From the IMG/VR virus record IMGVR_UViG_2706794698_000008: DNA of 6,390 nucleotides. The stretch is one strand, 5' to 3'. How positions within the stretch are numbered: the first letter of the stretch is position 1; every line of letters begins with the position of its first letter. This document shows positions 2 through 5,887 of the stretch, piece by piece. The DNA is from a virus. Its lineage: Duplodnaviria; Heunggongvirae; Uroviricota; Caudoviricetes. The position numbers and the translations under genes are program-made. The notes beneath the pieces were generated by a model. It made no database searches. It was not told where the DNA came from and saw only the letters and a list, made by a program, of their open reading frames with translations.

Positions 2-814
2 GATAAGACACGGCATCAGTACATGGCTGAATTTGGTGAACAGGTGCTGGTATTTTCCAAAGCCGATATTGCTAGTCGTTTTGACGAAGCCGATAATTTT
101 AGTGACCGCCGCTCAATTTTTTACGCCCGTAATGCCTGTTTCGACCAGGCAAAACTGGTCGGGTGTAAATACTTCATTCAGCTCGATGATGATTATCACG
201 AGTTCCAGTTTCGGGTGGATCGCAACTATGACCAGGCCTATTTCCCGATAAGGAAACTGGATGAGATCCTTTCTGAAATGCTTGCGTACTACGAATCAAT
301 ACCTGCTCTTTCCATCGCTATGTCGCAGGGCGGGGATTTTCTTGGTGACAATGGCGGCCATGCTTCGTGGGTGAAACGCAAGGCAATGAACAGCTTTATC
401 TGTTCGGTTGATCGACCGTTCTCATTCATGGGGCGCATTAACGAGGATGTGAATACGTACACGAATCTCGGTCGCTGTGGTGAATTGTTTATGACGATCG
501 GTGCTGTCCAGTTAGGGCAGAAACAGACGCAGAAAAACAGCGGCGGAATGACCGAGCTGTATCTGGATTCCGGAACCTACGTTAAAAGTTTTTACTCCGT
601 CATGTATGCGCCGTCGTGCGTAAAAATCTCACTTATGGGTGCCAGTCATAAACGCATTCACCATCAGGTCACCTGGAACAACGCTGCAGTAAAAATCCTT
701 CACGAAAAATACAGGAAGAAGACACCCTGCATATCAATGGGGGTGACAAATGATTCCGTATTCGAAAGTCGAGTCTCTGGCAGCGTGCCGGATGACTGCA
801 CAACAAATCGCTGA
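2..814 (+). CDS. Putative GT-A fold (family 2-like) glycosyltransferase, 5'-partial; function tentative
   Basis: Open frame runs from window edge (no in-frame stop upstream of first ATG at 23, and no Shine-Dalgarno before 23), stop TGA 812-814. Translation contains ARNACFDQAKLVGCKYFIQLDDDY, resembling the GT2/GT-A pattern ARN..G...A.G.Y(I/L).(F/L)D.DD (hydrophobic strand followed by DxD). The DxD sits only ~56 aa after the first in-window Met, so the N-terminus probably lies upstream. Motif-level evidence only. Confidence 0.45.
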   Translation, partial: DKTRHQYMAEFGEQVLVFSKADIASRFDEADNFSDRRSIFYARNACFDQAKLVGCKYFIQLDDDYHEFQFRVDRNYDQAYFPIRKLDEILSEMLAYYESIPALSIAMSQGGDFLGDNGGHASWVKRKAMNSFICSVDRPFSFMGRINEDVNTYTNLGRCGELFMTIGAVQLGQKQTQKNSGGMTELYLDSGTYVKSFYSVMYAPSCVKISLMGASHKRIHHQVTWNNAAVKILHEKYRKKTPCISMGVTNDSVFESRVSGSVPDDCTTNR

Positions 815-1001
815 CGTTCTGGATGTTGATCTGAACCGACTGAAAGAAAATCGGGAAGCAATGACAGATTTTTATGCGGCCATCCGTAAGGGCAGAGCGA
901 AAGGTGAAGCCGAGTTACGAGCGGCATTGTTTAAGCTTGCCAGAAAAGGGGATGCCTTTGCTCTGCGCGAACTACTCAGGGTGGATAAAAATCAGGACTA
1001 A
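750..1001 (+). CDS. Small HTH DNA-binding protein (83 aa), function unknown; possibly packaging-associated
   Basis: ATG 750 preceded by GGGGGTGA (739-746); stop TAA 999-1001, 3 nt before the terS start. Predicted HTH at TAQQIADVLDVDLNRL followed by a basic helical region. Alternative start ATG 792 (69 aa) is possible. Overlaps the 3' end of the upstream ORF by 65 nt in another frame. Confidence 0.5.
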   Translation: MIPYSKVESLAACRMTAQQIADVLDVDLNRLKENREAMTDFYAAIRKGRAKGEAELRAALFKLARKGDAFALRELLRVDKNQD

Positions 1002-1004
1002 CTG

Positions 1005-2099
1005 ATGAGCAGACCGGACTGGGGGGCGTTGCAGCAGGAGTATATTGCTGAATACACCCGCTCCGGTATATCTCCGGTGGCATGGTGTGAAGCAAGGGGA
1101 CTGAATTACGCAACAGCCCGTCGTTACATCAAAAAAACTCCGAAAAATGCGCAGACAGAAATGTGCAAAACTGCGCAAAAAAGTGCGCAGAAAAAATCTG
1201 CGCAGACTGCACAAAAGCGGAACGAAAAATCTCAGGAAAAAAAGCCAGTATTCGATGCGGGCCTGAATGAGGGCGACGCGGAGGAATTTTCGTTCTGTCC
1301 CGATGAATTCGGCATTTCTGACCAGCAGGCTAAGTTTGCGATGCTTGTTGCTCAGGGTAAAAAGCCGACAGAGGCGTACCGACTAGCCGGTTATGAGGGG
1401 CAAGGTGCGACAGCTAACAGCAACGCCAGTCGTATGCTTAGAAATGCCAGGGTTTTTCGCGCTATCAGCTACTTCCGCAATCAGTACCAGAAACGCTATA
1501 CCGCAGACCTGGATTTACTAGTGAGTCAGTTGATGGCTATTGTCCTGGCCGACCCCAATCAGCTTGCACAATTTCGCCGTGTTAACTGCCGTTATTGCTG
1601 GGGCGAGAATCATCTCTACCAGTGGCGCGATATAGCAGAATTCGACAAGGCAGCGGCGCAGGCTTCCAGAGATGGCAAACCCGAACCGGAATATGGAGGC
1701 CTCGGCTTTGTTGATAACGCCATACCCAATCCGGACTGCCCGAAGTGCTGCGGTGAGGGAACGGGACAGCTTTATATGGCTGATACCACTCTGCTTGATG
1801 GGGATGCGCGGCAATTATATGCAGGGGCAAAATTCGGAAAATTCGGCGTTGAGATCCTGCTGGAGGATAAGGCTGCCGCCCGGCGTGAATTGTTGCGTTT
1901 GTTTTCTGCTGGCGGGGCTTTATGTGCAGATAAGCGGCTACGGGAACTGGAAATTGAACGGCGCAGAATGGAAAACCAGAAGCTGCGCAAAGAGATCGAA
2001 ACGGTGGAAGATAATGAACATCCCCAGCCTGTGGCGATCAATATTAATGTGGTTGATGCCAGAGTAAGGAGTGATGAAGATGATCTCTCCGACGCTTAA
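1005..2099 (+). CDS. terS: Terminase small subunit (Terminase_2 / P27-like DNA-binding domain), atypically long at 364 aa
   Basis: ATG 1005 with AGGA (994-997) 7 nt upstream. The segment ISDQQAKFAMLVAQGKKPTEAYRLAGYEGQGATANSNASRMLRNARV matches the terminase small-subunit HTH signature (..Q..F...Y......A...AGYS...A......LL....V). Also an N-terminal transposase-like HTH, a K/Q-rich linker, a CxxC...CxxCC motif, a coiled-coil region and an acidic tail. Sits immediately upstream of terL. Confidence 0.85.
   Translation: MSRPDWGALQQEYIAEYTRSGISPVAWCEARGLNYATARRYIKKTPKNAQTEMCKTAQKSAQKKSAQTAQKRNEKSQEKKPVFDAGLNEGDAEEFSFCPDEFGISDQQAKFAMLVAQGKKPTEAYRLAGYEGQGATANSNASRMLRNARVFRAISYFRNQYQKRYTADLDLLVSQLMAIVLADPNQLAQFRRVNCRYCWGENHLYQWRDIAEFDKAAAQASRDGKPEPEYGGLGFVDNAIPNPDCPKCCGEGTGQLYMADTTLLDGDARQLYAGAKFGKFGVEILLEDKAAARRELLRLFSAGGALCADKRLRELEIERRRMENQKLRKEIETVEDNEHPQPVAININVVDARVRSDEDDLSDA
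1148..1213. repeat. Cluster of palindromic hexamer TGCGCA (4 exact + 2 one-mismatch copies in 66 bp) inside terS
   Basis: Exact TGCGCA at 1148-1153, 1172-1177, 1184-1189, 1199-1204; variants TGTGCA 1162-1167 and TGCACA 1208-1213. Spacing 9-15 bp. Coincides with the Ala-Gln repeats of the terS linker (NAQT..TAQKSAQKKSAQTAQK). Confidence 0.65.
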
Positions 2100-3367
2100 T
2101 GTGCCTCAGGCGCGATTTCTNNNNNNNNNNNNNNNNNNNNNNNNNNNNNNNNNNNNNNNNNNNNNNNNNNNNNNNNNNNNNNNNNNNNNNNNNNNNNNNN
2201 NNNNNNNNNNNNNNNNNNNNNNNNNNNNNNNNNNNNNNNNNNNNNNNNNNNNNNNNNNNNNNNNNNNNNNNNNNNNNNNNNNNNNNNNNNNNNNNNNNNN
2301 NNNNNNNNNNNNNNNNNNNNNNNNNNNNGTATCGGGGAACCACTATCTGCAGATCGATGGAGAAGCCACAAACGATCGTCGGTTTCAAAATTGGTAATGC
2401 GTTGGTGGATGAACTGGACATTTTGCCGAAGGAAAAAGCCAGAACGGCGTGGCGCAAGATAATTGCACGTATGCGTTATAAGATTGATGGACTTCGCAAC
2501 GGTATTGACGTTACAACCACGCCGGAAGGATTCAAATTTGTCTACGAGCAGTTTGTTAAAGCCGTGCGTGAAAAAACAGAGCTGGCCTCACTGTATGGTC
2601 TGGTGCAGGCATCTACTTTCGATAATGAAAAGAACCTGCCAGCAGATTACATTCCTTCGCTTCTTGAATCATACCCTCCAGAGCTGATTAAAGCCTATCT
2701 TCGAGGACAGTTTACTAACCTGACAAGTGGTACTGTTTACCATCAGTTTGACCGGAAACTGAATAATTGCGAAGAAGTGGAGCAGCCAGGGGAGCCGATT
2801 TATATTGGGATGGATTTTAACGTTGGAAAGATGGCGGGAATCGTCCATGTGCTGCGTTTGGGGCTTCCATGTGCGGTAACTGAAATCATCAATGCCTACG
2901 ATACGCCGGATATGATCCGCATCATTAAAGAACGCTTCTGGCTGTATGATGGGAATGATTACNNNNNNNNNNNNNNNNNNNNNNNNNNNNNNNNNNNNNN
3001 NNNNNNNNNNNNNNNNNNNNNNNNNNNNNNNNNNNNNNNNNNNNNNNNNNNNNNNNNNNNNNNNNNNNNNNNNNNNNNNNNNNNNNNNNNNNNNNNNNNN
3101 NNNNNNNNNNNNNNNNNNNNNNNNNNNNNNNNNNNNNNNNNNNNNNNNNNNNNNNNNNNNNNNNNNNNNNNNNNNNNNNNNNNNNNNNNNNNNNNNNNNN
3201 NNNNNNNNNNNNNNNNNNNNNNNNNNNNNNNNCAGGTCTGGGATGAGAAGGGGGAGCCTGATAAAAAATCTGGCAATGATCACCCGAATGATGCCGGAGG
3301 TTATTTCATCGTTAAGCAATTCCCTATTGTCAAACCGACCGGAAGAGTCACATCACTTCGGATTTAA
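2099..3367 (+). CDS. terL: Terminase large subunit (ATPase + nuclease), interrupted by two N-masked blocks; start uncertain
   Basis: Frame-2 ORF with ATG 2099 overlapping the terS stop (TAATG). Visible motifs: Walker B-like NALVDELD, terminase ATPase C-motif VTTTPEG, nuclease-domain start IYIGMDFNVGKMAG and C-terminal NDHPNDAGGYF acidic motif. Walker A is presumably inside the 2121-2328 N block. Position between terS and portal fits. Confidence 0.85.
   Translation: MCLRRDFXXXXXXXXXXXXXXXXXXXXXXXXXXXXXXXXXXXXXXXXXXXXXXXXXXXXXXXXXXXXXXXXXXXXXXYRGTTICRSMEKPQTIVGFKIGNALVDELDILPKEKARTAWRKIIARMRYKIDGLRNGIDVTTTPEGFKFVYEQFVKAVREKTELASLYGLVQASTFDNEKNLPADYIPSLLESYPPELIKAYLRGQFTNLTSGTVYHQFDRKLNNCEEVEQPGEPIYIGMDFNVGKMAGIVHVLRLGLPCAVTEIINAYDTPDMIRIIKERFWLYDGNDYXXXXXXXXXXXXXXXXXXXXXXXXXXXXXXXXXXXXXXXXXXXXXXXXXXXXXXXXXXXXXXXXXXXXXXXXXXXXXXXXXXXXXXXXXXQVWDEKGEPDKKSGNDHPNDAGGYFIVKQFPIVKPTGRVTSLRI
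2121..2328. other. N-masked block (208 nt) inside terL 5' region
   Basis: Run of n characters; content unknowable from this window. By position it should contain the terL Walker A motif. Confidence 0.99.
2963..3232. other. N-masked block (270 nt) inside terL nuclease-domain region
   Basis: Run of n characters; the terL frame is the same on both sides. Confidence 0.99.
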
Positions 3368-3369
3368 TT

Positions 3370-4791
3370 ATGGCTGATATATCAACACCCAACCTCGACT
3401 ATAACGATATGCTGGAGGCGTGGGATATTAACGACGCACTGATGGGCGGTACGCTTGAAATGCGCAGGCAGGGGGAAAATTATCTCCCAAAATGGCCTAA
3501 CGAAGATGAAGACGCTTATAAAAAACGCCTGTCTGTGGCTACGCTACTTCCTGTGTATGAAGAAAGCATCAAGCAAAATATTGGGCGCATATTTGCAGAG
3601 CCGACAGTATTGAGTGAGGAAACGCCGGCAAAAATCAGGGAATATGCAGANNNNNNNNNNNNNNNNNNNNNNNNNNNNNNNNNNNNNNNNNNNNNNNNNN
3701 NNNNNNNNNNNNNNNNNNNNNNNNNNNNNNNNNNNNNNNNNNNNNNNNNNNNNNNNNNNNNNNNNNNNNNNNNNNNNNNNNNNNNNNNNNNNNNNNNNNN
3801 NNNNNNNNNNNNNNNNNNNNNNNNNNNNNNNNNNNNNNNNNNNNNNNNNNNNNNNNNNNNNNNNNNNNNNNNNNNNNNNNNNNNNNNNNNNNNNNNNNNN
3901 NNNNNNNGTATAAAAGAGGTCATCATTATTGATGGTGATGATTTCGGGCAGAAGAAGGTGGAGCAGATCCGCCATATTATGCCCCGTCGAGTTGAAATTT
4001 ATCGACGTAGCGAAGGCACTAATGGCGAATCTGTCTGGACGCTTCATGAGTCATGGAATACCAGCCGTGATGATATTCCTCTGGTAACACTGTACACGAA
4101 GAAAACAGGATTTATGCGTGGTACACCGCCATTGCTTAATCTTGGCTTGCTGAATATCAAGCACTGGCAAAGCCAGAGCGAGCAGGACAATATTCTTCAT
4201 GTTGCCCGCGTTCCATTGCTGGTGGCCTACGGGCTGGACAGGAATGAAGAACTGACGGTTGGTGCATCCACCGCTACGATTTTTGAGGACAGAACAAAAA
4301 ATGGCCTCGAATATGTTGAACATAGTGGCGCAGCGATAGAATCTGGCGAAACATCACTTGAGAAGCTGGAAAATCAGATGCGTCATGCCGGCGCTAAACT
4401 TCTGCGTGCTGAAAATACATCCACCAAATCTGTTGATCAGACTAATGAAGAGCGAATGCAGGAAAACTCGCCGCTTTATACAATGGCGAACTCCCTCGAA
4501 GATGCCCTCGATAATATTCTCCAGATAATGGCGGAATGGATCGGAGAGAGTTGCGGTGGCAATGTGGATGTGCGCACTGAACTGGATGTATCTGCCCAGG
4601 TGTTTGACTCATCCTCCGCGCTGGCTGTTCAGTCATTGCGTCAGGGCGGTGATATACGTCAGATTGATGCGGTTCGGGTGTTGCAGGCGTTGAAATTTAT
4701 CGATCAGGATTCCCGTCCAGAGGAAGTGATCGATGAATTAAAAAATCAGAGTGTAATGCTGATGGAAATCAATGATGCAAACCGTGAATGA
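3370..4791 (+). CDS. Portal protein (473 aa), central part N-masked
   Basis: ATG 3370 lies 2 nt after the terL stop (TAA 3365-3367); stop TGA 4789-4791. Size and position (terL - this gene - Mu F-like gene) are those of a portal. Assignment is by synteny and overall character, not a specific catalytic motif. Confidence 0.75.
   Translation: MADISTPNLDYNDMLEAWDINDALMGGTLEMRRQGENYLPKWPNEDEDAYKKRLSVATLLPVYEESIKQNIGRIFAEPTVLSEETPAKIREYAXXXXXXXXXXXXXXXXXXXXXXXXXXXXXXXXXXXXXXXXXXXXXXXXXXXXXXXXXXXXXXXXXXXXXXXXXXXXXXXXXXXXXXXIKEVIIIDGDDFGQKKVEQIRHIMPRRVEIYRRSEGTNGESVWTLHESWNTSRDDIPLVTLYTKKTGFMRGTPPLLNLGLLNIKHWQSQSEQDNILHVARVPLLVAYGLDRNEELTVGASTATIFEDRTKNGLEYVEHSGAAIESGETSLEKLENQMRHAGAKLLRAENTSTKSVDQTNEERMQENSPLYTMANSLEDALDNILQIMAEWIGESCGGNVDVRTELDVSAQVFDSSSALAVQSLRQGGDIRQIDAVRVLQALKFIDQDSRPEEVIDELKNQSVMLMEINDANRE
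3651..3907. other. N-masked block (257 nt) inside portal gene
   Basis: Run of n characters; the portal frame is continuous across it if the masking is one-for-one. Confidence 0.99.
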
Positions 4792-5887
4792 ACGGCTGCG
4801 TGATGAATCAATTGCTCATGCAGTCTGGATATCCCGCTATAGCACTGGCGTGGCTGCCAGAATGGTGAAAATACTGAATGACAGCGATGCGGAACTTACT
4901 GCTCGCCTGCTGATAGCACTGGACAGCCTCGATCCAGGTAGTTTTACCGTTAAGCGCCTGGAGTCACTTCTGGCGAGCGTCAGAGAGGTTAACCGCACTG
5001 CTATTAACAGCATGTTTACCAGTCTCTCCGGAGAGCTGAACGAGCTGGCAATTTATGAGGCTGGTTATCAGTTAAGTCTGTTTGATTCTATGCTACCTGA
5101 TTTTGTTGCTGATGTTCACCCTCTGGTTGGTATCTCTCCTGATGCACTTTATGCCGCTGCAATGGCGCGACCATTCCAGGGACGACTGCTCAGTGAGTGG
5201 GCCTCAGATCTTGAGGCGGATCGGCTCAGACGCATAACAAATACAGTGCGTCAGGGTTTTTTGCTGGGGGATACCAATGAGCAGATCGCAAGAAAAATTC
5301 GGGGACATGTCAGTAAGGGATTTCAGGATGGTGCATTGCAGATGAGCCGGGCTAATGCGGCCAGCATTGCAAAAACAGCGGTTGGACATCTTGCTGCTAC
5401 TGCCCGTGAGAGTTTTGCCAGCGCGAATAATGATTTGATTAAGGGTAAGCAATGGTTATCAACGCTTGATAATCGTACTACGCCACAATGTCGAATCAGG
5501 GATCGCCTCAAATATACGCTGAATAATAAACCTGTAGGTCACAGCGTGCCTTATTTGCAGGGGCCGGGAAAAATTCATTTCTGCTGCCGCTCAACGGAAA
5601 CGTTCATTCTGAAATCAGCGAAGGAACTGGGTATTGATGTTCGCGATATTTCCCCGGCTGAGCGGGCCAGCATGGATGGCGTGGTGGCCGGAGATACAAC
5701 CTACAGGGAATGGTTTTTGCGTCAGCCTTACACCAGACAAAAACAGATTGTGGGGGAAAGCCGAGCAAAGCTGATTCGGGATGGTGGTATGTCGCCAGAT
5801 GAATTTTACACCGATAAAGGCGAATGGCTGACGCTGAAGCAGCTCCGTGAGCGTGATGCACAGGTATTCAGAAAAGCAGGGATTTAA
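4772..5887 (+). CDS. Head morphogenesis / minor head protein, phage Mu F / SPP1 gp7 family (371 aa)
   Basis: Starts ATGATG at 4772, overlapping the portal 3' end by 20 nt; stop TAA 5885-5887. Contains TTPQCRIRD and KIHFCCR (H at 5576-5578, CC at 5582-5587), matching the conserved H-x-x-C-R-C motif of the Mu F family. Position directly after portal is canonical. Confidence 0.85.
   Translation: MMQTVNERLRDESIAHAVWISRYSTGVAARMVKILNDSDAELTARLLIALDSLDPGSFTVKRLESLLASVREVNRTAINSMFTSLSGELNELAIYEAGYQLSLFDSMLPDFVADVHPLVGISPDALYAAAMARPFQGRLLSEWASDLEADRLRRITNTVRQGFLLGDTNEQIARKIRGHVSKGFQDGALQMSRANAASIAKTAVGHLAATARESFASANNDLIKGKQWLSTLDNRTTPQCRIRDRLKYTLNNKPVGHSVPYLQGPGKIHFCCRSTETFILKSAKELGIDVRDISPAERASMDGVVAGDTTYREWFLRQPYTRQKQIVGESRAKLIRDGGMSPDEFYTDKGEWLTLKQLRERDAQVFRKAGI

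Follow-up and report, generated by a model that had tools for sequence, protein, structure and literature searches.

The 6,390-nucleotide viral DNA stretch analysed here (the window) begins with the 3' part of a gene that is confirmed to encode a GT-A glycosyltransferase of the TAGT family (positions 2–814, residues 41–310 of 310). Together with a YnaK-like partner gene, which lies outside the window, it constitutes an obligate, co-inherited two-gene module. The reading that we favour, at a probability of roughly 0.45, is that the module encodes a late-expressed, two-component DNA glycosyltransferase which works without TET. The window features given below with positions lie on the plus strand.

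The open reading frame of the glycosyltransferase is open towards the window's left edge and closes with the stop codon TAA at positions 812–814. Its translation matches the Pfam family TAGT (PF20691) with 77.7 bits (E 1.5e-21; gathering cut-off 27.5 bits) and PHROG 842 with an E-value of 2e-84. NCBIfam and PADLOC searches returned no family for the protein, and the E. coli copies carry the NCBI name ‘GREB1-related’. A full-length copy of 310 residues is present in a 98.9%-identical phage (L001:11882–12814) and covers profile positions 4–205 of 205 with 121.1 bits. The 40 N-terminal residues located outside the window comprise strand β1 and the first acidic motif, VVDDED. Thus the preliminary description of this DNA was right in regarding the gene as 5'-truncated, but the unseen upstream domain which it had assumed does not exist: the TAGT domain begins at residue 8 of the complete protein, which rules out an extra N-terminal domain, and the element missing upstream is a gene in its own right, the partner ynaK. 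The glycosyltransferase is soluble and mildly basic, and its nucleotide-sugar and metal-binding motifs are intact.

The nucleotide-sugar/metal-binding region, extending from YARN to FIQLDDDY, is encoded at positions 122–196 (YARNACFDQAKLVGCKYFIQLDDDY), with the DDD triplet at 185–193, and is supported by two alignments (A1 and A2), by the structure model and by the motif of the family. Within both alignments R83 and D102 are invariant, and D103 and D104 are at least 90% conserved. The second acidic motif of the family, N-E-D-V (positions 440–451), is one of two peptide patterns by which relatives were recovered. N187 and D189 of this motif are invariant in A2, which contains 36 sequences down to 38% identity, and by sequence the N-E-D-V residues are candidates for a catalytic or acceptor-side function. 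R83, D102–104 and N187-E188-D189 follow the R...DDD...ED(Y/F) pattern of phage DNA GT-A enzymes in a minor variant, in which V190 comes directly after ED and Y193 stands three residues further. The R...DDD...ED motif characterizes phage DNA GT-A enzymes for which glycosylation of 5hmC in DNA has been demonstrated (bioRxiv 10.1101/2023.12.21.572611), and the fit of R83, D102, N187 and D189 to it supports DNA as the target. In the C-terminal third, H260-H261 (positions 659–664) are invariant in A1 and A2 and lie at a site with a model pLDDT below 50.

The AlphaFold2 model displays a GT-A core which is confident at residues 1–180, with a pLDDT of about 90 for residues 1–150, and is unreliable in the C-terminal third (residues 218–310). 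The modelled strand β4 (residues 97–102) runs into D102-D103-D104. A Foldseek comparison with the PDB identified SpsA, glycogenin and LARGE1, all of GT-A fold, as neighbours, and the best neighbours among viral models are TAGT-domain proteins with TM-scores of 0.67–0.74. The glycosyltransferase signature noted in the preliminary description is hence borne out at both points where it might have failed, since the profile search places the protein in a family of glycosyltransferases and the model shows a GT-A fold with the acidic triplet following β4.

The end of the gene (positions 728–814) encodes a C-terminal tail, PCISMGV...TTNR, which only the E. coli Rac-type copy carries and which is missing in 18 of 18 other A1 sequences. 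This tail overlaps the next open reading frame, and the glycosyltransferase of relatives, about 288 residues long, stops where the small frame begins. Probably, the tail arose by read-through after the ancestral stop codon was lost. The small frame itself (positions 750–1001, 83 residues from the ATG at 750; 69 residues from the annotated ATG at 792) matches positions 145–218 of 319 of PHROG 309, ‘terminase small subunit’, with an E-value of 8e-23. Enterobacterial relatives have a conserved frame of 83–86 residues at this place, and the product is probably a small packaging-associated DNA-binding protein. Further downstream follow the small terminase subunit of 364 residues (positions 1005–2099; PHROG 51, E 7e-75; Pfam Terminase_2), the large terminase subunit (2080–3367; annotated as terminase in the related phages L001 and L002; masked runs of N at 2121–2328 and 2963–3232), a portal protein of the DUF4055 type (3370–4791; PHROG 145, E 1e-122, and the annotation of L001; run of N at 3651–3907) and a Mu-F/SPP1 gp7-like head morphogenesis protein (4772–5887; PHROG 241, E 1.5e-182; Pfam Phage_Mu_F). 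The genomic context agrees with the earlier placement of the glycosyltransferase between the lysis and packaging genes of a lambdoid genome. The gene is indeed located upstream of terS, but not directly, as had been stated, because the small frame intervenes and overlaps its 3' end.

Directly upstream of the glycosyltransferase gene lies its partner, known as ynaK in Rac-type lambdoid prophages. The ynaK stop codon and the TAGT start share 8 nt (ATGCGTGA), and the run GGAGGAGG precedes this overlap. YnaK is acidic, with a pI of 4.5. The constant element of the partner is a C-terminal domain of about 115 residues, helical in the model, which carries the motifs YTxKIxxPxYEP, AAxRHxVF..IA.YY and SALVIID..AIxxG and for which no Pfam family and no PDB relative were found. 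Outside E. coli this domain is mostly a stand-alone protein of about 130 residues, adjoined by a TAGT gene in 3 of 3 sampled cases, and in Vibrio phage pv27 it is the only part of the partner present. In the E. coli protein a ParB N-terminal domain, less well conserved than the C-terminal one, is fused in front of it; the ParB/Srx nucleotide-binding domain of YnaK represents an optional addition.

The Pfam search of YnaK detected ParB_N at residues 23–90 (28.9 bits, cut-off 26.3) and no other domain, including no recognisable DNA-binding domain, and Spo0J aligns with residues 7–93 only. Residues 3–141 match the phage ‘DNA methyltransferase’ family PHROG 498 with an E-value of 1e-50 and the N-terminus of the PADLOC Type II MTase with 2e-38, compared with only 1e-6 for generic ParB_N; these matches place the ParB_N of YnaK in the subtype that phage DNA methyltransferases carry at their N-terminus. 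The sequence GHGR of YnaK aligns with GERR of Spo0J (CTP-binding box II, GERRxR), with G57 conserved in at least 95% and R60 in at least 80% of the sequences. In ParB176 the CTP/NTP-box residues are dispensable (PMC13229309). No functional information was found in the literature on ynaK.

Co-occurrence of both genes was observed from either side. All 85 loci found from TAGT contain a YnaK-like gene, directly upstream in 84, and 82 of the 83 loci found from the partner contain TAGT, directly adjacent in 78. Moreover, the identity matrices of the two proteins co-vary (Spearman 0.52; Mantel 0/999). The module is found in phages of E. coli, Lactobacillus, Nocardia, Porphyromonas and Vibrio and in an archaeal virus, and the order of partner and TAGT is the same in the Lactobacillus, Nocardia and Porphyromonas phages and in the archaeal virus HHTV-2. 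The large terminase gene lies downstream in 31 of 37 dereplicated loci, at a median distance of 821 nt, and belongs to at least four TerL families. In Rac-type phages the module sits in the late operon ahead of the terminase genes, with trkG immediately upstream; in Vibrio phages the neighbours of the pair are genes for primase, exonuclease and helicase.

Genes fused or adjacent to the module in relatives encode SAM methyltransferases, a sulfotransferase, a P-loop NTPase, a second TAGT, a cytidylyltransferase and an epimerase, all of kinds that DNA hypermodification clusters contain, which speaks for DNA as the target. A GT9-type heptosyltransferase and nucleotide-sugar genes are located near the module in a few relatives, and a Gp23-like gene in Vibrio phage pv27. 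None of the 382 proteins retrieved is a convincing ParB-TAGT fusion, which could have served as Rosetta-stone evidence: P0081 and P0363 seem to be chimeric gene calls or products of read-through, and the N-terminal extensions of about 180 residues in P0151, P0188 and P0198 are P-loop NTPases rather than ParB domains.

A source of hydroxymethyl-pyrimidine for the enzyme was not detected. The complete 38.7-kb Rac-type phage contains no gene recognised as encoding a TET/5mYOX or other dioxygenase, a thymidylate-synthase-like hydroxymethylase or a sugar-nucleotide enzyme, and dCMP hydroxymethylase and α-/β-glucosyltransferase are absent from its gene list. Its unannotated early genes, considered as hidden dioxygenases or hydroxymethylases, turned out to be DUF1627, DUF977, KilA-N, DUF1971, DUF1367 and YbcO, and two frames of 167 and 189 residues which match no family are too short for a typical 5mYOX. 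Among the best 25 families listed per scan for 159 flanking genes of 34 dereplicated loci there is no TET/5mYOX or hydroxymethylase, and eight contexts with precomputed Pfam annotation include no Tet_JBP or other dioxygenase. We know of no glycosyltransferase that acts on canonical DNA bases.

These observations also bear on the possibility that the glycosyltransferase is a second-step enzyme, decorating a modification installed by a co-resident prophage or by the host, or, in Rac-type phages, a remnant of a ParB-5mYOX-GT pathway left without substrate and with little present function. The T2/T6 enzyme, the best-known member of the family, only adds a second glucose to glucosyl-hmC. ParB, 5mYOX, GT and terminase genes have been found together in mined phage contigs, and many phage 5mYOX are missed by the Pfam TET/JBP model (PMC13229309). 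A remnant, however, is at odds with the strong purifying conservation, the catalytic residues remaining invariant down to 27–38% identity across bacterial phyla and archaea, with the intact pair in 889 of 5,426 complete E. coli genomes (≥95% nucleotide identity; strain L73, NZ_CP033378, is one of them), and with the recurrence of the minimal two-gene unit without any third conserved gene. Conservation, retention and recurrence indicate a self-sufficient, selected function, so that a leftover or a second-step role appears quite improbable.

For the favoured two-component DNA glycosyltransferase, the two proteins would be the subunits of one enzyme, in which the small domain activates the transferase or sets its acceptor specificity. 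Precedents for such an arrangement might be seen in the ParB-like proteins that activate phage 5mYOX dioxygenases on double-stranded DNA and in α-lactalbumin, which re-specifies a GT-A galactosyltransferase. The ParB-type domain could tether the enzyme to replicated phage DNA or time its action there. With a nucleotide-sugar of the host as donor, phage DNA would be glycosylated late in infection, during packaging, and the nucleases of the next host would then be confronted with modified DNA. In contrast to every characterised TAGT enzyme, the module would require no phage-encoded TET/5mYOX or hydroxymethylase. DNA is favoured as the target because of the family and of the domain type of the partner. 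In addition, the linkage to terminases agrees with an older proposal, as later papers relate it, that ParB proteins direct modification during packaging, although the adjacency could partly reflect a common insertion hot-spot. Against DNA as the target speak the acidity of YnaK and its lack of a recognisable DNA-binding domain, the departure of its GHGR from the ParB CTP-binding motif GERR, and the missing hydroxymethyl-pyrimidine source. A special form of this reading, in which the YnaK-like domain and TAGT are self-sufficient and put the sugar directly onto unmodified phage DNA during packaging, at a canonical base, at the backbone or at the ends made by terminase, is doubtful. If true, it would constitute a new chemical class of DNA modification without a TET or hydroxymethylase step, spread over tailed viruses of Bacteria and Archaea and unnoticed in about one sixth of the sequenced E. 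coli strains.

The missing hydroxymethyl-pyrimidine source in the Rac-type phage would suit an enzyme that glycosylates protein. Here the most economical acceptor would be the partner itself, at the invariant Tyr, or at the Thr, of YTxKIxxPxYEP; another would be a virion or packaging protein of the adjacent operon; variants are a glycogenin-like priming reaction and a modification that regulates a ParB-type switch. The partner is the only protein which universally co-occurs with the TAGT clade, terminases and capsids varying by lineage, and its invariant, Pro-flanked Tyr, located in a low-confidence and probably extended acidic segment, could instead be a protein acceptor site in an exposed linker. 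However, a docking or activating segment would equally give a conserved linear motif. Glycogenin, a Tyr-O-glucosylating GT-A enzyme, is among the fold matches, but these are generic for GT-A, at 10–12% identity. Structural genes adjoin the module, and the Gp23-like gene is close by in pv27, yet the Vibrio phage pair sits in a replication gene block. In mycobacteriophage-type virion glycosylation, glycosyltransferase genes near structural genes place glycans on capsid or tail proteins, and the location of the present gene beside structural genes is compatible with such a role. Since, on the other hand, all characterised family members use DNA as substrate and the ParB domain of the partner is of the DNA-methyltransferase-associated subtype, a protein acceptor is considered unlikely.

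The position of the module invites a further explanation, namely a host-directed moron acting either on an envelope glycan, with lysogenic conversion or superinfection exclusion as the outcome, or on a small molecule or nucleotide that host defence uses, and for which the place before terS is just a permissive insertion site. The lysis/terminase junction is a known site of accessory cargo, with the obvious moron trkG immediately upstream, and the heptosyltransferase and nucleotide-sugar genes near the module in a few relatives would be in line with glycan modification. Neither protein of the pair contains a membrane segment, though: the maximum 19-residue hydropathy is 1.08 and 1.25, versus 2.62 for TrkG. 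Thus the features of Gtr-type O-antigen glucosylation are lacking, with no hydrophobic segment in the glycosyltransferase (maximum KD19 1.08) and with trkG, ynaK and terminase genes as neighbours in place of the gtrA/gtrB-like or flippase genes for which the preliminary description had proposed to look; no flippase, GtrA or GtrC was found among them. Virulent-type and archaeal viruses, which infect hosts with unrelated envelopes, also keep the module beside the terminase genes, and the only match to a defence model is the MTase-type ParB domain. The absence of membrane segments and of flippase or GtrC neighbours, together with the late-operon position, which speaks against expression in lysogens, makes a Gtr-type role at the host surface unlikely, and strict conservation of the two-gene module next to terminases across phyla makes random cargo unlikely. 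A host-directed moron as a whole is very improbable. Of the targets originally envisaged (DNA, virion proteins, host surface or mere cargo), the choice is therefore narrowed, with DNA in the favoured position.

Among the main ways in which phages evade restriction and CRISPR is the glycosylation of their DNA, which is itself targeted by the host defences GmrSD and Brig1. To our knowledge, every characterised pathway of DNA glycosylation first installs a hydroxymethyl or hydroxyl pyrimidine. Orphan genes without a hydroxylation step have been left unexplained, both for phage GT-A enzymes, where they occur in 65% of GT contigs (10.1101/2023.12.21.572611), and for TAGT, where they occur in 288 of 753 phage genomes (PMC13216743). 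At least one large orphan clade now has a defined anatomy, with an obligate, unannotated partner of about 115 residues, often ParB-fused, and a place at the front of the packaging genes in viruses ranging from E. coli phages to those of haloarchaea. Should DNA be the target, the module would represent a TET-independent glycosylation system; should it be protein, a new phage glycoprotein system linked to a ParB-type switch. The module would also explain the past role of the pseudogene-like ynaK in K-12, a strain without the module.

Comparison with known systems starts from the family itself. Iyer et al. 2013 (NAR 41:7635) reportedly defined TAGT and, as far as citing papers relate, advanced the ParB hypothesis; this work may already describe TET-less ParB-TAGT pairs. 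The association with TET/JBP (5mYOX) dioxygenases from which the family takes its name was not observed for the present enzyme. The base-J glucosyltransferase JGT/GREB1, a eukaryotic member of the GT-A superfamily, transfers glucose onto hydroxymethyl-pyrimidine in DNA and relies on the thymine hydroxylases JBP1/2. JGT is only about 9% identical to the phage enzymes (10.1101/2023.12.21.572611). The T2/T6 β-glucosyl-HMC-α-glucosyltransferase, whose name PHROG 842 (matched at E 2e-84) carries, shares PF20691, the GT-A fold, the DDD and ED motifs, phage origin and solubility, but enzymes of T-even-type phages are only 22–24% identical to the present one (E ~1e-4). In T-even phages the acceptor of the second glucose is α-glucosyl-5hmC premade by dCMP hydroxymethylase and α-GT, neither of which is encoded here, and the literature consulted describes no ParB-like or small-domain partner of the T-even enzyme. 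The characterised TAGT members, namely the T2/T6 enzyme and TET-associated GTs, all act on DNA (PMC13216743; 10.1101/2023.12.21.572611), and the present clade belongs to the ‘solitary TAGTs’ to which PMC13216743 draws attention.

The TET/5mYOX-associated GT-A enzymes (Burke 2021, PMC8256090; Pyle 2023/2024, 10.1101/2023.12.21.572611) share the family name and the R...DDD...ED motif. Like the present module they are operonic, post-replicative and often located near ParB and terminase genes, and some of their clusters include accessory O-methyltransferases, kinases and epimerases. In contrast, they act on 5hmC or 5hmU supplied by an adjacent C5-methyltransferase/TET or T-dioxygenase, neither of which was found in the present clade, and an obligate small-domain partner is not described for them (PMC8256090; 10.1101/2023.12.21.572611).

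With the prophage-enriched ParB_N-DNA methyltransferase fusions (PHROG 498; PADLOC Type II MTase; Kaljevic et al. 2025, PMC12704722), YnaK shares the ParB_N subtype; neither a glycosyltransferase nor YnaK is mentioned in that paper. In the fusions the catalytic domain is attached to ParB_N, whereas in YnaK ParB_N sits on a non-catalytic-looking helical domain, and the glycosyltransferase is separate and translationally coupled. Lactose synthase consists of a GT-A β-1,4-galactosyltransferase whose acceptor specificity is set by the small, separate, helical α-lactalbumin. Being eukaryotic, secretory, directed at a sugar acceptor and without homology to the present pair, it provides a mechanistic precedent for a specifier subunit only.

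The activated dioxygenases supply a further comparison. ParB-like NBD-linker-CTD proteins without a DNA-binding domain are, by experiment, cognate activators of DNA 5mYOX on dsDNA (PMC13229309). The 5mYOX176/ParB176 system (O'Toole et al. 2026, PMC13229309) shares by description the combination of a DNA-modifying-type enzyme with such a partner; both NBD and CTD are needed, the pairs are cognate-specific, and the clusters co-occur with GTs and terminases. In the module described here, a ParB/Srx domain is likewise followed by a CTD lacking an HTH, and the two genes form an adjacent, co-inherited pair. The activated enzyme, however, is a Fe/2OG dioxygenase in one case and a glycosyltransferase in the other, and the NBD is dispensable in many lineages of the present module, which retain the CTD alone. 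YnaK and TAGT would represent a new pairing of the ParB-activated kind rather than a member of the 5mYOX systems.

On the plus strand, frame 2 is open from the left edge of the window to the TAA at 812-814 (270 codons), and the signature by which the preliminary description had recognized a GT-A-like glycosyltransferase, YARNACFDQAKLVGCKYFIQLDDDY, is indeed encoded within this ORF at nt 122-196. Over its first 1,100 nt, the window shares 98.8-98.9% identity with ten phages in the databases (E. coli accounts for nine, Salmonella for one), in which the complete glycosyltransferase (GT) gene comprises 933 nt, encodes 310 aa and is annotated as 'hypothetical protein'. The proposed 5' truncation is therefore real but confined to residues 1-40, comprising strand β1 and a VVDDED motif, and the full-length copy of 310 aa rules out the additional upstream domain that had been presumed to lie out of view. 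The C-terminal tail (728..814, plus strand) of the Rac-type E. coli copy is absent from 18 other aligned family members and looks, by this comparison, like read-through following loss of an ancestral stop codon. It extends 23-65 nt into the following ORF.

The window fragment scores 77.7 bits against Pfam PF20691 (TAGT, 'TET-associated glycosyltransferase'; cut-off 27.5 bits) and the full protein 121.1 bits, covering profile positions 4-205 of 205. PHROG 842, labelled beta-glucosyl-HMC-alpha-glucosyltransferase, is matched with an E-value of 2e-84. In the AlphaFold2 model, which is unreliable in its last third, the GT-A core is predicted with confidence (pLDDT about 90 over residues 1-150) and the strand 97-102 runs into D102-D103-D104. 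Foldseek searches with this model returned exclusively GT-A enzymes from the PDB, among them SpsA, glycogenin, LARGE1 and SunS/ThuS, and TAGT-domain proteins among viral models (TM 0.67-0.74). In an alignment of 36 homologues with identities as low as 38%, R14, D41, R83, D102, G151-D152, K167, N187, D189 and H260-H261 are invariant, which fits the R...DDD...ED pattern of phage GT-A enzymes glycosylating 5hmC in DNA (10.1101/2023.12.21.572611). Since profile, fold and invariant residues agree, both the observation and the core interpretation of the preliminary description are correct, and the conserved GT-A enzyme is probably active. Public annotation already describes this protein as a glycosyltransferase, either TAGT or 'GREB1-related'.

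The near-identical phages share the order Q antiterminator, holin/endolysin/Rz, trkG, a 263-aa 'ParB' gene, GT, small ORF, terS, terL and portal, and the complete genome of 38.7 kb represents an intact Rac-type lambdoid phage (int, ralR, recET, racC, kilR, sieB, ydaW, trkG, ydaY). RefSeq names the 'ParB' gene ynaK. Its stop codon overlaps the GT start (ATGCGTGA) and a GGAGGAGG run lies ahead of that start, an arrangement which, at the sequence level, is typical of translational coupling. The ynaK-GT pair was matched in 1,580 of 5,426 complete E. coli genomes, 889 of the 5,426 carrying at least 80% of it. In K-12 derivatives, ynaK is reduced to its first 254 nt and joined to ydaY (e.g. NZ_CP026342:1425377-1425630); the Rac deletion in K-12 took out the remaining ynaK, the GT and the entire packaging/head region. 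The potassium transporter gene trkG (L001:9485-10960, in one of the near-identical phages, just ahead of the region matching the window) is a moron between lysis cassette and ynaK in all Rac-type phages examined.

A YnaK homologue is encoded in every one of 85 GT-seeded loci (55-100% identity; viral contigs, metagenomes and GenBank phages). It is located directly upstream of the GT, with its stop overlapping the GT start, in 84 of them, the sole exception being L071, where the GT is fused to a methyltransferase and the YnaK-like gene lies 3.2 kb away. The order partner-GT is also present in cultured phages of 27-47% identity. In Lactobacillus phage phi jlb1 it reads ParB-like, GT, terS, terL, portal; in L. 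delbrueckii phage c5 the pair forms the first two genes past the cos site; and it is kept in Nocardia phage NTR1, Porphyromonas phages and the haloarchaeal virus HHTV-2. Moreover, the pairwise identity matrices of GT and YnaK co-vary (Spearman 0.52, a value reached by 0 of 999 Mantel permutations). The two genes form an obligate, co-inherited module in which the stop of one overlaps the start of the other. Upstream of the pair, gene content is heterogeneous; downstream, TerL is encoded on the same strand in 31 of the 37 dereplicated loci that have sufficient sequence, at a median of 821 nt from the GT stop, and these TerLs represent four or more Pfam TerL families. The module is situated in the late operon, adjoining the terminase genes. 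We are highly confident that the protein is a TAGT-family glycosyltransferase working with a YnaK-like partner.

In the window, the GT is followed on the plus strand by a small ORF (750..1001, 83 aa; 69 aa from the annotated start at 792), which matches the middle of the 'terminase small subunit' PHROG 309 (E 8e-23). At the equivalent position, enterobacterial relatives have a conserved ORF of 83-86 aa. The product of the ORF in the window may be a distinct component of the packaging machinery that recognizes DNA. Then follow, also on the plus strand, terS (1005..2099), terL (2080..3367), the portal gene (3370..4791) and a Mu-F-like head gene (4772..5887). Three masked N runs (2121-2328, 2963-3232 and 3651-3907) fall within terL and the portal gene. 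The first run shifts the apparent terL frame, the true start being the ATG at 2080, which overlaps terS by 20 nt. GenBank relatives label the 4772..5887 gene 'NAD+--asparagine ADP-ribosyltransferase'. Since Pfam (Phage_Mu_F) and PHROG 241 detect only Mu-F/SPP1 gp7-type head morphogenesis in the product, this label has probably been transferred from longer fusion proteins.

Within YnaK, Pfam detects only a ParB N-terminal domain (residues 23-90). The C-terminal half is the best-conserved part, above the ParB domain, with conservation of 95% or more at each of Y148, P155, Y157, R201, H202, Y214, Q222, E226 and D234. This small domain displays three motifs (YTxKIxxPxYEP, FLxxAAxRHTVFNFxKIADYYAHA and QxLMExSALVIIDFxKAIENGF) and matches no Pfam family. 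In Vibrio phage pv27 (~191 kb), the gene directly upstream of the GT encodes 139 aa matching the C-terminal domain alone (E 2e-53), and the neighbours of the pair are primase, exonuclease and helicase genes. A 303-aa Gp23-like (major-capsid-like) gene (L088:3905-4813) lies some 650 nt ahead of the pair, within this otherwise replicative block. A profile search with the small domain retrieved 6,152 proteins, the best matches being mostly stand-alone (125-135 aa, devoid of Pfam domains) and the others having ParB_N in front. Stand-alone genes were directly upstream of a TAGT in 3/3 examples, and viral loci seeded with the small domain contained a TAGT in 82 of 83 cases, directly downstream in 78. 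In many lineages, the partner carries a fused ParB domain of the type seen on DNA methyltransferases. In four loci (L150, 2942-3895; L156; L162; L165) a His-phosphatase plus cytidylyltransferase gene is inserted between partner and TAGT, and in L154:3578-5260 it is fused to the YnaK-like protein, on a contig ending before any GT could appear. This suggests a sub-lineage making its own nucleotide-activated donor.

Several observations tie the module to DNA. Every characterized TAGT-family enzyme acts on DNA, namely the T2/T6 enzyme and TET-associated enzymes (PMC13216743; 10.1101/2023.12.21.572611), the T2/T6 product being gentiobiosyl-hmC (PMC13216743). Residues 3-141 of YnaK resemble the N-terminal part of phage DNA methyltransferases (PHROG 498, E 1e-50; PADLOC Type II MTase, E 2e-38) far more closely than they do generic Pfam ParB_N (1e-6), and ParB_N-methyltransferase fusions are enriched in prophages (PMC12704722). 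Members of the TAGT clade are fused to class-I SAM methyltransferases (P0128, P0129, L071:6001-7719), a Sulfotransfer_2 domain (P0165), a P-loop NTPase/kinase-like domain with Walker A GxSCAGKS (P0151, P0188, P0198) or a second TAGT (P0146, P0148), and cytidylyltransferase and epimerase/dehydratase also occur as fusions or insertions. Enzyme types like these are on record for DNA hypermodification clusters (PMC13229309), and the fusions imply that in some phages of this clade glycans would be phosphorylated, methylated, sulfated or extended.

However, no TET/5mYOX (TET/JBP-like dioxygenase), hydroxymethylase or sugar-nucleotide gene was found in the complete Rac-type phage, among the families listed for flanking genes in 34 dereplicated loci, or in eight contexts with precomputed Pfam. 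As no glycosyltransferase is known to accept canonical DNA, the chemistry would be new. Also against DNA as the target, YnaK is acidic (pI 4.5), has no recognizable DNA-binding domain and carries a GHGR box that deviates from the GERR motif of ParB. That the GT is a remnant or a second-step enzyme is difficult to square with the conserved minimal two-gene unit and appears quite improbable. A host-surface or other moron role is highly improbable, as both proteins are soluble, Gtr-type neighbours are absent and the module recurs in viruses of hosts with unrelated envelopes. The GT has no membrane segment by hydropathy and is mildly basic (pI 8.0-8.5). An acceptor must be at hand in every host, whether E. 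coli or a haloarchaeon, which leaves DNA or another universal molecule, or the partner itself. An invariant Tyr in an exposed linker of the partner would suit a protein acceptor, which we nevertheless regard as unlikely.

In the preferred reading, DNA glycosylation, the small partner domain would bind the transferase and activate it or set the acceptor, and the ParB domain would load or time the complex on replicated phage DNA. Sugar would be transferred from a host nucleotide-sugar to DNA shortly before or during packaging, a late timing comparable to that of Mu Mom, and the modification would shield the genome once injected into the next host. To this chain as a whole we assign a tentative probability of about 0.45.

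Orphan TAGT/GT-A genes, often near ParB and terminase, have been noted without explanation (PMC13216743; 10.1101/2023.12.21.572611). The literature compared yielded no description of the strict two-way linkage, of independence from any hydroxymethyl-pyrimidine source, of the module's reach into archaeal viruses or of the link to E. coli ynaK, nor had the small partner domain, which belongs to no Pfam family and can occur alone, been identified there; prior mention by Iyer et al. (2013), who defined TAGT, is possible. The module is common, and two genes in E. coli suffice for testing.

A further link to DNA is supplied by a 2026 study in which phage ParB-like proteins were shown to act as cognate activators of 5mYOX thymine dioxygenases, needed on double-stranded DNA (PMC13229309). 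5mYOX clusters co-occur with GTs (31%), ParBs (27%) and terminases (19%) (PMC13229309). The ParB-like activators share the layout of YnaK, in which a nucleotide-binding domain, a linker and a C-terminal domain follow one another without a DNA-binding domain (PMC13229309).
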